Positions 38,788 through 43,871 of a DNA stretch of 64,000 nucleotides are shown piece after piece. The position numbers and the translations under genes were made by a program. The notes under the pieces are model-generated. The model made no database searches and was not told where the DNA came from. It saw nothing but the letters and a program-made list of their open reading frames with translations. The stretch is taken from positions 96,001 to 160,000 of the forward strand of contig JAWAKK010000002.1 of NCBI GenBank assembly GCA_038887515.1. Reading direction: 5' to 3'. Each line of letters begins with the position of its first letter. Within the stretch, counting starts at the first letter, position 1. Source of the stretch: Candidatus Nezhaarchaeales archaeon. Lineage in GTDB: Archaea > Thermoproteota > Methanomethylicia > Nezhaarchaeales > WYZ-LMO8.

Positions 38788-40596
38788 TTATTGTTCCTCT
38801 TTTTCCTCTACTTCCTCCTTTTCCGGGATGTAATAGTATTCTCCTATGCTCTTCTGCTTCCTATGAAGATAGGAATCAGGCTTATTTATTCTAACCCTTC
38901 CGCTATGTAAATCTCTTCTAAAGGTGACGTCGATCTCCTGCAGGAAGAGGTTAAAGCCACTCCTCAAATCCATGGGGCTTGACGCAATGCCGTAAACTCC
39001 CGGTTTACCGCTGAAAACCATTATCGAATCAGCAACGGCATCCATAACTACAAGATCGTGCTCAACGACGAAAGCTGCTGCCTTCCTTTCCTCTACGATC
39101 CTTCGAATGAGCTTTGCCATGATGAGGCGTTGCTCTACATCTAAGTAGGCGGAAGGTTCGTCAAGTAAATATATGTTAGCCTCCTTGGCTAAGGTACACG
39201 CTATGCTGACTCGTTGAAGTTCGCCACCGCTTAAAGAGGAAAGCCTACGATCAAAAAGTTGTTCAAGCATAAATGGTTGGCATATCTCGCTCTTAAACCA
39301 AGGCGTGAACATTATGTCCCCCAAGTTCCTGTGCATATATTCGTAGACCATCTCCTCGCTCTCAAGAGTTATGTATTGTGGTTTATAACTGAACTTTATG
39401 TTAATATTCTGTTGGTTCGACAATAGATCCACCAGGGCCTTTACAAAGGTCGTCTTACCGATTCCGTTAGGACCTAATATGCCAATGACTTCCCCTTCAT
39501 GTATAACTCCTTGGTTTGCGCTTAGCTCGAAGCTCTCCCCTACCTTGACCTTGAATGAGGGCCACGAAAACAAATCGGTGACGGCGTAGGATTCTCTTGG
39601 TCTAGGTCTCAACTTAAACCTCACGGGCTCGCTCCTGAACTTTATGTTCTCGCTAGGTATGTAACCGTCGAGATATACGTTTATGCCCACTCGAACACCG
39701 TATGGTTGCGATGTAATTCCATAAGCTCCTGGCTTGCCGTACATTATGCAGACCCTGTCTGAAACGTAGTCCAGAATTGCAAGGTCGTGTTCAGCTATTA
39801 TGACCGCTTTACCTTCTTGAGACAGGGATCTTATGACTCTAGATGCTTTGAGCCTCTGCATAACGTCTAGGTAACTAGCCGGTTCGTCGAATATGTAAAC
39901 ATCAGCATCGCGGCAACACGCAGCAACTATAGCTAGTCTCTGAAGCTCCCCACCGCTTAGTGCTGCTACTTCCCTATCAGCTACATCAATTAGGTCGAGG
40001 TCTGTAGCTAAGTCCTTCCACATCCCCCTTTCATCAACTTTATTTAGTAACTCTTTAATGGTACCTTTGACGTATTTGGGTATTAAGTCCACGTACTGTA
40101 CTTTGTGTACAACGCGAAGCTTCCCATGATACAAGTCCCGAAAATAGGGTTGCAGTTCTGTTCCAGCAAAAAAGCGTATCACATCGTCCTTTGTTGGTTG
40201 ATGTTCTATAGCACCGAGGTTCGGTGTAAGTTCCCCTGACAAAATGCGAAGTATTGTAGTTTTTCCCGTCCCGTTGGGTCCTATCAAACCTATAACTTGA
40301 CGTCTTCTAGGGGAAGGAAGTCTATAAAGCCTAAACCCATTAACGCCATACTGATGAACGCATTCGCTTTCCAGTTCTTCGGGTAAATTAACTATTGTTA
40401 TGGCCGAGAAAGGGCACTTTTTAACGCAAATACCGCAGCCAACACATAGGTTCTCTCTTATTACTGGTCTATAGATGTCTTCGTCAAACTCGATGGCCAT
40501 AACTTTATTCTTCACCAATGGACAGAAACGATAGCATTCTCTACTACACTCTTTTGGCTTGCATAGATCTTTATCTATTACAGCTATTCGGGGCAT
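38788..40596 (-). CDS. rli: Ribosome recycling ATPase ABCE1 (start ATG 40596 after AGGAG SD)
   Basis: N-terminal 2x[4Fe-4S] domain, two ABC domains with LSGGELQR. Confidence 0.96.
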   Translation of the reverse strand: MPRIAVIDKDLCKPKECSRECYRFCPLVKNKVMAIEFDEDIYRPVIRENLCVGCGICVKKCPFSAITIVNLPEELESECVHQYGVNGFRLYRLPSPRRRQVIGLIGPNGTGKTTILRILSGELTPNLGAIEHQPTKDDVIRFFAGTELQPYFRDLYHGKLRVVHKVQYVDLIPKYVKGTIKELLNKVDERGMWKDLATDLDLIDVADREVAALSGGELQRLAIVAACCRDADVYIFDEPASYLDVMQRLKASRVIRSLSQEGKAVIIAEHDLAILDYVSDRVCIMYGKPGAYGITSQPYGVRVGINVYLDGYIPSENIKFRSEPVRFKLRPRPRESYAVTDLFSWPSFKVKVGESFELSANQGVIHEGEVIGILGPNGIGKTTFVKALVDLLSNQQNINIKFSYKPQYITLESEEMVYEYMHRNLGDIMFTPWFKSEICQPFMLEQLFDRRLSSLSGGELQRVSIACTLAKEANIYLLDEPSAYLDVEQRLIMAKLIRRIVEERKAAAFVVEHDLVVMDAVADSIMVFSGKPGVYGIASSPMDLRSGFNLFLQEIDVTFRRDLHSGRVRINKPDSYLHRKQKSIGEYYYIPEKEEVEEKEEQ

Positions 40597-40935
40597 AATC
40601 ATATCTCCTGCCTGACGATATATCGAACGCTGATAACTATGCATGTCGAGCCTATACTTCGATCCTAACTACTTCACCTTTTGCTCGTCCTTATTTCATT
40701 ATCGGTCGCATTTTCTCAATAAACTTAGTCCTATAGTGACTTAACGGCCGGGTTATAAAGACCTTCATTCTTCCATGAATGTCCAACTGTTGTCTAATAT
40801 AGTATTATCTAATAGCAGCTGTGTGGATAATGTAAATTCGCGAAGATTATGAAGATTGCCAAGAAAACAGAAATATGTTTTGTTAAAAATTTTAGGTTAA
40901 AAATAGTTGTGTTGTATTGAGTTGAATTAATACGT

Positions 40936-41010
40936 CTACCACTCCTCTTCCCATTCCTCTTCCTCTTCCCATTCCTCTTCCTCTTCCCATTCTTCCCATT
41001 CTTCTTCCAT
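40936..41010 (-). CDS. Candidate 24-aa Glu/Trp microprotein MEEEWEEWEEEEEWEEEEEWEEEW
   Basis: ATG to TAG, SD AGGGGG 7 nt upstream, TATA TTTAAATA at 41053-41060; mixed GAA/GAG codons. Confidence 0.65.
   Translation of the reverse strand: MEEEWEEWEEEEEWEEEEEWEEEW
40951..40986. repeat. Perfect 2x18-bp tandem repeat inside the Glu/Trp ORF
   Basis: CCATTCCTCTTCCTCTTC repeated twice, flanked by degenerate copies. Confidence 0.9.
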
Positions 41011-41110
41011 CTTTCTGCCCCCTGAAACGGTGTCTTAGAAGATTTATGGCTTTATTTAAAGTTACCGATAGGTTTGTGGAGAAGCTTTTAAGAAAAGCCC
41101 TCCTTTAAAC

Positions 41111-41656
41111 ATGCATGCTAAAAGGTGTTTAGCGTTGAAATTTAACTTACTGGTCTCCACGTACAGGAGCAGAGAAGATGAGTGTATAAGCGAGCTATGG
41201 TATTTATTCCGAGAGCTAGGCGACGATCAGGTAGAGATACGTAGAGCACCGGTTCCCGGACTACTGTTCGTAAGAACCAATCTTGATCCTTTTGAGGCAT
41301 CTAAAAAGATTGGAGAGATAGCCAGAGAGAGACCTTGGGACGTAAGGTATACCTTGAAGCTTACTCCAATCGATGCCGTTACTAGCGACGATCTGGATGA
41401 AATTAAGAGTGTAGCAGTTGCACTAGCAAATAAGAAGATACGTGAAGATGAAACTTTTAGGATAACGGTGAACAAAAGGCTTTCCAGCATTAGTAGTAGG
41501 AAGCTTATAGAGGAAGTAGCCAAGGAGATTAATAGGAAAGTTAGCTTAAAGAAACCCGATAAGATTCTACAAATAGAAATAGTCGGGAAAGACGTAGGAA
41601 TAGTCGTGTTAAAGCCAGAAGACGTAGTTTCAATAGTTAAGATAACTACCTCTTAA
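41111..41656 (+). CDS. Stand-alone THUMP domain RNA-binding protein
   Basis: FRITVNKR, VSLKKPDKILQIEI. Confidence 0.85.
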   Translation: MHAKRCLALKFNLLVSTYRSREDECISELWYLFRELGDDQVEIRRAPVPGLLFVRTNLDPFEASKKIGEIARERPWDVRYTLKLTPIDAVTSDDLDEIKSVAVALANKKIREDETFRITVNKRLSSISSRKLIEEVAKEINRKVSLKKPDKILQIEIVGKDVGIVVLKPEDVVSIVKITTS

Positions 41657-42242
41657 TTTTTAAAAGGGCCATCCTCGTTAAAACGCTCTTCAACTCGGCG
41701 CTTAAAACGGACGATTTGTAGCTAGTAGTAGATAGCTCATCGCTCTTAACGTTGAGCATCTTTAATAGAGAACCTGATTCTGGTGCCTTCAAAACATTAA
41801 GTGGCAACAAAACTTCAACGGGCAGGGAAGATAAAGCCGATAGCGATTCTTCTAAGACGTCCTTGTTAGGAGATATGATGTAAAGGCAAAACTCTCTAGC
41901 CCTATCATCTAACCCAGCAATTTTAAGAGCATTAGTTATCTGATCTTCACATGTAAGGCGTACCAAGAACTCTATGTTAAACTTGTTACTTATGTTATCT
42001 CTAGTGACAAATGCTTTTAGAGTATGATAAAAGACGTGCAAGACGTGGACCGGCGATATTGCAAGTCCGGGGCGTGTTACCGCCCATAAAACCTTGAAAG
42101 GTTTGAAAACCTTCTCCAATGATTGGATTATTTCCTGCGATGGAAGTTCACTTCTTAACTTTATGTATATGATGCCTAAGCCTGTTTGATCCTTGTTGCT
42201 TATAAGGAGAGATAGCAATTCCCTTGCGAAATCAATGTTCAT
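41646..42242 (-). CDS. cgi121: KEOPS subunit Cgi121 (start likely ATG 42242)
   Basis: NIS...IEFLVRL...QITNALKIAG pattern. Confidence 0.8.
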   Translation of the reverse strand: MNIDFARELLSLLISNKDQTGLGIIYIKLRSELPSQEIIQSLEKVFKPFKVLWAVTRPGLAISPVHVLHVFYHTLKAFVTRDNISNKFNIEFLVRLTCEDQITNALKIAGLDDRAREFCLYIISPNKDVLEESLSALSSLPVEVLLPLNVLKAPESGSLLKMLNVKSDELSTTSYKSSVLSAELKSVLTRMALLKIKR

Positions 42243-42531
42243 GATTGGATCCACCATGAACTGATGGTATTAACGATATCTCTTTAATATCGCCTTGAGA
42301 AGTATTGACACCGCCGATGACGTTTACGTCAACGCCGTCAACCATAACTATTATATCGCTCCTTATGTTTCCTCCACTAGGTTCAAAGACCCTCTTAAGG
42401 AGAGACTCGTTGTCTTTGCATGCCAAGCGTATTATGTCTATTATCTTGATACCTTGAGGTACATCCACTTCAATAGAGCTAGACTTCGCTAAACTTCGAA
42501 GCACCGCTAAGAAGTTCACTTTAACTTTCAT
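42232..42531 (-). CDS. Ubiquitin-like Urm1/SAMP (MoaD/ThiS) protein with a 5-aa tail after GG
   Basis: MKVKVNFLA...IVMVDG...IPSVHGG-SNHEH. Confidence 0.85.
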   Translation of the reverse strand: MKVKVNFLAVLRSLAKSSSIEVDVPQGIKIIDIIRLACKDNESLLKRVFEPSGGNIRSDIIVMVDGVDVNVIGGVNTSQGDIKEISLIPSVHGGSNHEH

Positions 42532-42548: not shown

Positions 42549-42605
42549 GAGGTCAGTTGAGGTACATGTCTTCACCTTTCAGTGCAGGTCAGCTTCTTCA
42601 TCCCT
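42549..42605 (-). ncRNA. C/D-box methylation guide sRNA
   Basis: ATGAAGA-12nt-CTGA-aag-GTGAAGA-12nt-CTGA; short terminal stem; ATTTAAAT at 42631-42638. Confidence 0.9.
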
Positions 42606-42653: not shown

Positions 42654-43871
42654 ATGTTATTGGTGGCTGCAATATCCTATGGTTATGGTAATAAGGAAAG
42701 CCCAGTACTTCTTAAAAGATCCCTACTTAGCATTATAGAGAAGAAGTTAAAGAGAGAGAAACTCAAAGTTGCTAAGAATGATAGCCATTCTAAACGTAAA
42801 CCCATAAGCTGTGGTCTTACGGTACATCCCGGTTCCGGTTGCCCCCTTCAATGTAGTTACTGCTATATTTACGACATGGGATTTAACACGTATGCAACGC
42901 CATACTCTCTTGAAGGGCTTCAGCTCGTGGCAGCCCTTCTTTATAACAAGTATTTTTATCCTACTAGATGGGGTACTTATCTTGCATTCGGTAGCGTAAC
43001 AGAACCCTTCCTTCCAAATATAATGCCTAAAACGTTGGAGTATTTGAAAGCCGTGTCAGAGTATTTAGGCAATCCTTGTCAAGTTTCCACTAAGATGGTT
43101 ATCCACGACGAAGTGATAGAAGAGCTCGTTGGCATAAAGGATTTAAAAATATCATTTTTAATCACGGTAACGAGTCTCAGACAATTCCTCCATCTAGAGG
43201 AGAAAGCTCCTCACCCCTTCAAACGATTGGAGAACTTGAAGAGGTTGAGGAAAAAAGGGTTTAAACCGTTCGTGTTCTTGAGACCCCTCTTGCCTGGATT
43301 AAGCGATGAAGAGCTAAGTGAGATAGTAGACCAAGCACGAGCTTCAGGTGCTTATGGCATTGTTATCGGCAATTTAAGGTTATCACAAAACATAATTAAA
43401 AGGCTTTTAGGCAAAGGTATAAACCTTTCAAAGCTCTTTACAACAGATTTTAGATCTCTAAAAAAGGGATTTATCGATATTAGAGTTAATGGTAGGGTTT
43501 TATCATGCATTAGAGAAAGAGCTTTAGAGAGGGGACTCATCTTCGTGAAGAGGGCGTGCTGTGCCAATACGCTTTCGCAGTACCTCCAAGGACACAGTGA
43601 TGTGGTGTGCCCCTCCTTATGTTTCCTAAACGAAAATGTATGCGAACCAACATGTCCTTCTCAATGTAGAAGAAAGGCTCTAGGAGAACCTAATCACATA
43701 GATATGTATGAGACCATAGGAGAAGTTCTCGGATCAAATAAGTACGAAGTAGACGTGGAGAATCACGTTATTTCCATAAAGCTTAAGGAAAGCTTGAGAG
43801 ATGAAAAGTCAGCATTATTCTCATTGATGTACCTCTTACGGAGGAAAATTAGATTTATAAAATCCACTTAG
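42654..43871 (+). CDS. Radical SAM protein (SplB/COG1533-like)
   Basis: CPLQCSYC, GSVTEPF, STK, RPLLPG; Cys-rich C-terminus. Confidence 0.85.
   Translation: MLLVAAISYGYGNKESPVLLKRSLLSIIEKKLKREKLKVAKNDSHSKRKPISCGLTVHPGSGCPLQCSYCYIYDMGFNTYATPYSLEGLQLVAALLYNKYFYPTRWGTYLAFGSVTEPFLPNIMPKTLEYLKAVSEYLGNPCQVSTKMVIHDEVIEELVGIKDLKISFLITVTSLRQFLHLEEKAPHPFKRLENLKRLRKKGFKPFVFLRPLLPGLSDEELSEIVDQARASGAYGIVIGNLRLSQNIIKRLLGKGINLSKLFTTDFRSLKKGFIDIRVNGRVLSCIRERALERGLIFVKRACCANTLSQYLQGHSDVVCPSLCFLNENVCEPTCPSQCRRKALGEPNHIDMYETIGEVLGSNKYEVDVENHVISIKLKESLRDEKSALFSLMYLLRRKIRFIKST

Follow-up and report, generated by a model that had tools for sequence, protein, structure and literature searches.

The stretch of DNA analysed here, referred to as the window (64,000 nucleotides), was found to carry on its minus strand a micro-ORF situated upstream of the gene for the ribosome-recycling ATPase ABCE1 (Table 1). 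Direct reading of the window gives its product as MEEEWEEWEEEEEWEEEEEWEEEW. The 24 sense codons consist of one Met, 18 Glu (12 GAA and 6 GAG) and five Trp, such that the 23 codons after the ATG are exclusively GAA, GAG or TGG, and the formal charge of the 24-residue peptide is approximately -18. With a calculated monoisotopic mass of about 3402 Da before processing and neither Lys nor Arg, it would escape tryptic mass spectrometry. An earlier note on this DNA had described the ORF and named ABCE1 as the next gene on the same strand (ORF 40644..38788); when the sequence was re-read, the composition, start and stop, the mixture of GAA and GAG, the Shine-Dalgarno (SD) motif, the TATA box and the neighbouring gene were all as described. 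Transcription of the micro-ORF is predicted to start near 41030, from the usual archaeal TATA-to-start spacing, and the T5 runs on its 3' side are likely to be an oligo-T transcription terminator. The EEEW-stop pattern has a single occurrence in the 1.29-Mb genome, namely the micro-ORF.

Table 1 Features at the micro-ORF locus, in coordinates of the window.
Feature	Position	Strand	Remarks
Glu/Trp microprotein CDS, 24 aa	40936..41010	-	ATG 41010, stop TAG 40938-40936
Shine-Dalgarno-like GGGGG	41018..41022	-	7 nt 5' of ATG
TATA-box-like TTTAAATAAA	41051..41060	-	~45 nt 5' of ATG
Two T5 runs	40903-40899, 40889-40885	-	32 and 46 nt past stop
ABCE1 (ribosome-recycling ATPase)	38788..40596	-	~340 nt downstream of micro-ORF, same strand
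THUMP-domain gene, divergent	41111..41656	+	Pfam PF02926, E 1.4e-09; shares intergenic promoter region
Weak CGI-121/KEOPS-like gene	41646-42257	-	PF08617, E 0.0011, below cut-off; start overlapped by Urm1/ThiS-like gene
Urm1/ThiS-like gene	42232-42531	-	PF09138, E 1.1e-05; product runs past Gly-Gly (…VHGGSNHEH)
C/D-box sRNA beside Urm1/ThiS-like gene	42551-42605	-	Rfam sR17, 37.9 bits vs gathering score 36

ABCE1 of the window matches the solved archaeal ABCE1 with an E value of 3.9e-193. The start of its longest ORF lies 16 codons upstream of the MPRIAV at which the orthologues start; the latter start (40596) has its own AGGAG-like motif and is likely the true one, so that annotation by longest ORF would over-extend ABCE1. 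The THUMP gene is treated purely as genomic context of the micro-ORF. ABCE1, the THUMP gene, the Urm1/ThiS-like and CGI-121-like genes and the sRNA form a cluster connected with translation and the modification of tRNA.

Conservation of the reading frame

The open frame of the tract means little by itself, because a sequence made of GAR and TGG alone allows no stop in any forward frame. Tandem Repeats Finder also reports the tract (40939-41008, periods 6, 12 and 18), and both observations would suit a non-coding simple-sequence repeat, either a purine-rich microsatellite or a structured RNA, that is open by chance. ABCE1 was searched in 40 relatives and the DNA between ABCE1 and the THUMP gene was then read. 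An acidic/Trp ORF was present at the same position in 23 of 30 ABCE1 loci of the class, all 23 ending Trp-stop, and was absent at ABCE1 in seven, those of families f4, f7 and f8. The same peptide is encoded by ten orthologues in the genus and the family, whose ABCE1 proteins are only 72-82% identical; the sole indel is a whole-codon difference, one Glu fewer in seven genus-level and two family-level copies.

In the codon alignment of these 10 orthologues the variable columns number 0/24, 0/24 and 16/24 at the first, second and third codon positions, respectively. None of the 48 first and second positions is variable, while the third position varies in 16 of the 18 Glu codons, always between A and G (GAA/GAG) and never giving Asp. 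Within 40 nt past the stop the identity amounts to 20-38% without gaps. ATG, stop, SD and TATA of the micro-ORF are conserved among the orthologues, the TATA being near-invariant (cTTTAAATAaa) across those of the genus, family and class, and a G-run or GGAGG is found at equal distance from the ATG in the class-level ones. Judged from these alignments, the peptide is under frame-specific purifying selection. Because relatives carry the ORF in place with only synonymous A/G changes at third positions, the micro-ORF is a gene beyond chance, and the comparison establishes it as a real protein-coding gene with its own predicted expression signals. The distribution of variable columns, together with the whole-codon indel and the conserved start, stop, SD and TATA, excludes a non-coding microsatellite as far as such a comparison can, and the probability left for a repeat open by chance is negligible.

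Other candidates for the conserved element were rejected. The +1-frame Arg/Gly ORF 40892..40999 (MGRMGRGRG...) varies freely among the orthologues, and the antisense ORF 41046..41108 meets a stop after 8 codons in the relative L003. As to a structured RNA, the predicted transcript folds no better than its shuffles (z +0.70) and Rfam gave no match over the tract at E<=1. The micro-ORF as a RiPP precursor was dismissed, as the radical-SAM gene concerned (42654-43871) is not adjacent and ABCE1, not radical-SAM, recurs in the loci examined.

The earlier note had read the tract as an expressed peptide rather than a satellite, and this reading gains strong comparative support from the frame-specific selection, the conserved start, stop, SD and TATA, the whole-codon indels and a phylum-wide occurrence. 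The outcomes it had set against its own reading, lack of a syntenic ORF and frame-breaking variants, were looked for in the relatives and neither was found. Three hot-spring metatranscriptome runs gave 0 reads on 4.2 kb, the organism itself not being detectable in the reads examined.

Database and literature searches

Neither the window peptide nor three longer homologues matched a Pfam family at a cut-off of E<=10, nor did two further homologues at E<=0.1, and NCBIfam gave no match to the micro-ORF family. A protein homology search gave five weak matches, all unnamed or 'hypothetical protein' and with N-termini over-extended into the promoter, in keeping with the prediction of the earlier note that gene callers would miss the gene. 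The six-frame HMM search of 62 class genomes recovered solely the forms containing Asp, Phe or Pro (13/62) and missed the ORF of the window itself, and an HMM search of 1.84 billion proteins gave one match. No longer, fused forms emerged from a dedicated search, which is weak evidence given a composition ill-suited to profile searches, and scores in the ESM Atlas were 0.81 or less, all to unrelated bacterial clusters. Full-text searches of open-access papers and bioRxiv yielded no description of the peptide family. Neither a known family nor a comparable published system came up in any of these searches.

Distribution of the family in Thermoproteota

As profile searches are near-blind to this composition, the degenerate pattern [DE]x4-Trp-stop was used. 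It matches 40/62 class genomes and 202/401 sampled genomes of the phylum, and the backwards control also matches (16 of the class genomes), so that the pattern is unspecific by itself and membership was judged by reading the ORFs. Short acidic/W ORFs were recognised in this way in 32 of the 40 pattern-fetched class loci and in all 20 loci from 17 further families, hand-picked from the match list at one to three per family, every one of the 20 ending Trp-stop. Named genome records were in addition scanned for EEEEEW-stop (at least 120 stretches, 80 fetched), and at least 38 archaeal micro-ORF loci were present among the matches listed, the records being those of Ignisphaera, Hyperthermus, Pyrodictium, Sulfolobales, Thermoproteus, Thermofilum, Bathyarchaeota and Methanomethylicia. 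By this reading of ORFs the micro-ORF of the window belongs to a family of short acidic W/F-rich ORFs spread through Thermoproteota, seen in Methanomethylicia, Desulfurococcales, Sulfolobales, Thermoproteales, Thermofilales and Bathyarchaeia, with the W-stop end in most.

The peptides range from 18 to about 56 residues and their Trp number varies widely. In family f5 the corresponding position is taken by longer versions with Asp, Phe and Pro, such as MEEDFDDDWTEDEEEDEWPEDEEEDEWPEDEDEDFEEEEW (40 residues) in L026. Among 68 distinct ATG-started members an SD-like 4-mer lies at -18..-4 in 52 (0.23 at random positions) and a TATA-like hexamer at -80..-21 in 57 (0.17 at random positions), and 43 have a T5+ run no more than 60 nt past the stop. 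Some genomes hold two or three diverged copies, as in G073 (L086-L088), G203 (L089-L091) and G031 (L052, L080); these copies occupy separate places, at most one of them beside ABCE1. The region past the stop also differs between members. A C5-6 run complementary to the G5 SD run follows the stop by a few nt in L006, L007, L009 and L011, and in members from f3 and f5 a post-stop pyrimidine stretch is complementary to the last Glu codons, which places UGG-stop in a hairpin loop. Neither the C5-6 run nor the complementary pyrimidine stretch follows the stop in the window.

The eukaryotic protein Lto1 has a C-terminal Trp, and a C-terminal tripeptide is recognised by the cytosolic Fe-S targeting complex. 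The constant C-terminus of the family could analogously make the peptide an Fe-S maturation adaptor, with its acidic-Trp end as a docking signal aiding [4Fe-4S] delivery to ABCE1. Agreeable to such a role are the cluster of conserved cysteines at the N-terminus of ABCE1, which is described as having two [4Fe-4S] clusters (PMC6125642), and the Trp-stop end of the 23/23 class members beside ABCE1 and the 20/20 sampled phylum members. Several Desulfurococcales copies, however, lack the terminal W and finish with -WE, -EEF or -EEEEE; the antepenultimate position holds Glu and not the hydrophobic residue of the eukaryotic motif, five Trp and 18 Glu far exceed the needs of a terminal signal, and none of the partner machinery was identified. 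This function is highly improbable.

Association with ABCE1

In 11 of the 20 loci fetched by pattern alone, and in 24 of the 38 archaeal micro-ORF loci among the matches listed, which were likewise fetched without reference to ABCE1, the flanking DNA contains ABCE1; the chance adjacency of a random gene is estimated at well under 1% (~4 kb out of 1.5 Mb). The divergent THUMP arrangement is conserved in relatives, THUMP and Sua5 genes being frequent divergent neighbours. The linkage to ABCE1 and THUMP raised in the earlier note is thus confirmed, far beyond the genus.

In the usual layout the micro-ORF precedes ABCE1 on the same strand; the gap measures ~56 to 390 nt, apart from one of 944 nt. 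Among the matches listed the micro-ORF is also found divergent from ABCE1 in five loci and downstream of it in three. ABCE1 is the most conserved neighbour gene of the family, in three orientations. A layout that varies in this way points to joint regulation or a common function and speaks against translational coupling. Ten genomes from pattern-poor families were inspected; in nine of them no acid-rich frame was found within 1.5 kb of ABCE1, and ABCE1 therefore does not universally need such a neighbour; the tenth (f15) has near ABCE1 an acid-rich frame ending LEEEW, which the pattern had missed.

Position upstream of ABCE1 raises the question of a cis-acting leader peptide (uORF), as acidic runs are reported to destabilise or stall ribosomes in bacteria and eukaryotes. 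The poly-acidic N-terminal tract would in that case act on the ribosome translating it and so set the expression of the downstream gene, which is ABCE1 or, in some Thermoproteales loci, AdoMet decarboxylase. It would thereby sense how stable ribosomes are or how much recycling capacity is available. The likeness to acidic-run leader peptides, among them the Mg-sensing leader of enterobacteria that works by intrinsic ribosome destabilisation, lies in a very short ORF with an acidic run near the start, often upstream of a gene. In the family the acidic run begins directly after Met and most ORFs end Trp-stop, the micro-ORF ends ~56-120 nt before the start of ABCE1 on the same strand in many lineages, the T-runs past the stop could serve as attenuators, and AdoMet decarboxylase is directly 3' of the micro-ORF in two Thermoproteales loci.

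A co-directional downstream gene is, however, not common to all members. Three loci among the matches listed have the micro-ORF downstream of ABCE1, and a convergent gene ends 3-150 nt past it in the five divergent loci and in three loci of family f7. At these eight loci the micro-ORF is monocistronic and nothing downstream is left to regulate, which indicates that it is not merely a leader peptide and points to action in trans. In the genus of the window, ~210-340 nt and T-runs separate the micro-ORF from ABCE1, and selection is equally strict there; most copies have a TATA-like motif of their own. The family also differs from leader peptides in being free-standing, monocistronic at eight or more loci, and in the strict conservation of Trp positions and Glu identity. 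A leader role is possible where the micro-ORF abuts ABCE1 or AdoMet decarboxylase; it cannot be the common function of the family, and as the explanation of the micro-ORF it is quite improbable.

Other neighbourhoods and acidic tails of other proteins

About a third to a half of the family members are away from ABCE1, in varied contexts. A second recurrent neighbourhood besides ABCE1 is that of Ogg/HhH-GPD DNA glycosylase genes, directly 3' of which, on the same strand, the micro-ORF is found in three lineages (L050 and L052 of f7; L093; L126). In the Thermoproteales loci L128 and L161 it lies ~100-150 nt upstream of AdoMet decarboxylase (PF02675) on the same strand; regulatory uORFs are known in eukaryotic AdoMet decarboxylase mRNAs. 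PhoU-type regulators are beside the micro-ORF in Thermofilales.

In most of the class outside the genus of the window and outside family f3 of its order, the micro-ORF and ABCE1 are separated by a small zinc-ribbon gene. The N-terminal ribbon of its product is of RPB9/TFS type (PF02150), and the best solved match is RpoM-2 of entry 7oqy. Examples occur in related genera of the family and in f2, f5 and f9 (L008 1163-1456, L026 1186-1488, L055 1555-1845), and the protein of ~100 aa comprises the N-terminal ribbon, a charged middle and an acidic tail, without the C-terminal ribbon of TFS. The orthologue in the genome of the window (47% identity) is relocated to contig 1 of G000 (L225 1477-1776, minus strand).

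Tails similar to the micro-ORF product were noted on other proteins. LysW amino-group carriers use a C-terminal Glu as attachment site, and family f4 has a ribbon of this LysW/FYDLN_acid type (PF21344, E ~5e-07; also PF09538) fused to a poly-Glu/Trp tail. In L075-L078 (f4) and L130 the tail has ~45 residues, ends EEEW and the gene is next to TldD/PmbA peptidase genes; no free micro-ORF was seen at ABCE1 in the f4 genomes. LysW-like CxxC ribbons with a long acidic tail ending in Trp, not Glu, occur in L117, L120, L158 and L160 (Clostridia and Anaerolineae/Chloroflexota records), and an acidic tail ending in Trp, with no ribbon visible in the part printed, in L113 (Thermoflexus). The window peptide differs from LysW in having no Cys or CxxC pairs and no globular domain, in being unmatched by PF21344, which finds the fused f4 forms only, and in its last residue, Trp as in 23/23 class orthologues; no LysX-type ligase gene was seen beside the micro-ORF. 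Outside this phylum, a Thermococcus protein of ~191 aa (L125, L163, L166), recognised from its sequence and presumably the TATA-binding protein, thus a DNA-binding factor, ends in an acidic tail …EEEEEW.

The disordered, Trp-containing eukaryotic protein DSS1/Sem1, which has conserved aromatics, binds several partners and is described as a DNA mimic, is likewise very small and strongly acidic. It uses the full amino-acid alphabet, as opposed to three residue types in the window peptide, and its Pfam model (DSS1_SEM1) does not match the micro-ORF peptides.

The earlier note had suggested that the peptide could imitate single-stranded nucleic acid and titrate histone, Alba or ribosomal proteins. 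More broadly, a general polyanionic decoy or chaperone, a nucleic-acid mimic or basic-surface shield without specificity for ABCE1, could bind or escort ribosomal proteins, chromatin proteins, DNA glycosylases and RNA polymerase factors. The extreme composition and the variable length and Trp number would fit such a multivalent, fuzzy binder, as would the unlinked copies 3' of glycosylase genes in three lineages, the TFS/RPB9-type gene 3' of the micro-ORF in this class, and the acidic Trp-ended tails on DNA- or protein-binding modules, namely the Thermococcus protein and the LysW-like ribbons. A decoy of this kind leaves unexplained the recurrence of ABCE1 as neighbour, across many orders and in three orientations. 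In the clade of the window, moreover, Glu, never Asp, occupies 18 positions despite saturated third positions. Tolerance of Glu alone suggests that the bound state has requirements beyond charge and is more specific, possibly helical. A general decoy appears rather unlikely, with a low yet appreciable probability.

Comparison with ligands of ABCE1

The N-terminal region of eIF3j is acidic and contains Trp, in a protein of roughly 250-300 residues; Archaea are known to lack eIF3. According to PMC7780240, this N-terminus touches ABCE1 close to NBD1 and the HLH, where it may influence the ATPase; the position is similar to that of the stalk tail, and the authors term it a 'multivalent interaction patch'. 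The likeness to eIF3j/Hcr1, which the earlier note had pointed out, consists in an acidic stretch with Trp that touches ABCE1 in the one case and is encoded next to ABCE1 in the other. In addition, eIF3j has a dimer formed by a helical bundle, and its C-terminal tail occupies the mRNA channel (PMC7780240), whereas the archaeal peptides have 18 to ~56 residues and no other domain. The Pfam eIF3j model, which covers the helical core, matched neither the window peptide nor the homologues tested.

The C-terminal tail of the ribosomal stalk protein aP1 offers a second comparison. Its C-terminal 18-mer binds the NBD1 cavity of ABCE1 via L103, L106 and F107, the tail activates the ATPase, and the ABCE1 mutants I170S, V174S, A223S and R227A impair this binding (PMC6125642). 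Like the micro-ORF product, the tail is acidic and flexible with hydrophobic or aromatic anchors near the C-terminus; it differs in being tethered to a ribosomal protein and in its Leu, Leu, Phe anchor, which is held in a helix (PMC6125642). A separate gene encodes the window peptide, which is untethered and contains five Trp. The window peptide consists of M, E and W alone, so that the Leu/Leu/Phe anchor is not present, and it is not the C-terminus of aP1 or aP0, being a 24-codon ORF with its own ATG, SD and TATA and no Pfam match. As the eIF3j N-terminus and the acidic-hydrophobic tail of the stalk both bind NBD1 of ABCE1, the eIF3j parallel is a reasonable functional lead, by analogy.

The four positions of the stalk-tail pocket are kept in the ABCE1 of the window (I, V, A and R). 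This is a prerequisite for binding of the peptide to ABCE1 and not evidence of it, because conservation of the pocket is expected anyway from the generality of the stalk interaction.

Discussion

The linkage of the micro-ORF to ABCE1 is one of gene neighbourhood, which is distinct from physical interaction. Our tentative proposal, to which we give somewhat less than an even chance, is that the peptide works in trans, as a soluble ligand with acidic and aromatic residues, on the apparatus of translation and ribosome recycling, with ABCE1 as the most probable target. Its binding site would be a protein surface able to recognise peptides that combine acidic and aromatic residues, and ABCE1 has such a surface in its NBD1 patch. 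The Glu/Trp peptide could fill this patch or contend with other ligands for it, and its occupancy could tune the activation of the ATPase; competition with the stalk could damp futile ATPase activity off the ribosome. Alternatively, the peptide might adjust how readily ABCE1 leaves the small subunit after recycling and before re-initiation, or act in an eIF3j-like manner on the 30S-bound state of ABCE1. Glu has a higher helix propensity than Asp, and the use of Glu, never Asp, in the clade of the window would fit a helical bound state of the peptide.

Several observations speak against ABCE1 as the target. Many family members are away from ABCE1, some genomes have three copies, and most of the genomes inspected from pattern-poor families show no acid-rich frame near ABCE1. 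The cluster also holds THUMP and Sua5 genes and, in this class, the TFS-like zinc-ribbon gene; and the anchor of the stalk tail consists of helical Leu and Phe, in contrast to Trp in a poly-Glu context. A complex prediction for ABCE1 (601 aa) with a cognate 40-aa family member gave a score of 0.00 and, made without controls, counts neither for nor against. A bolder form of the proposal, distinctly unlikely as it stands, would make the peptide a dedicated Thermoproteota cofactor of ABCE1 with a two-letter alphabet (Glu, Trp), a soluble mimic of the stalk tail that gates the ATPase or the 30S dwell time, and the archaeal counterpart in function of the acidic-Trp region at the N-terminus of eIF3j/Hcr1, which might even have evolved from it.

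A gene of 24 codons and three residue types falls below the length cut-offs of annotation pipelines and is masked as low complexity, and these pipelines miss it; low-complexity filters conceal real genes, as the micro-ORF demonstrates. Its signature of purifying selection is among the cleanest possible, and it is found beside an essential translation factor across orders of Thermoproteota. Should the peptide prove to be a polyanionic decoy of general kind, no smaller genome-encoded decoy would be known. If it acts on ABCE1, it would be a new component of archaeal ribosome recycling and of the hand-over to initiation, a poorly understood step which bears on the origin of the eukaryotic system of eIF3j, P-stalk and ABCE1.
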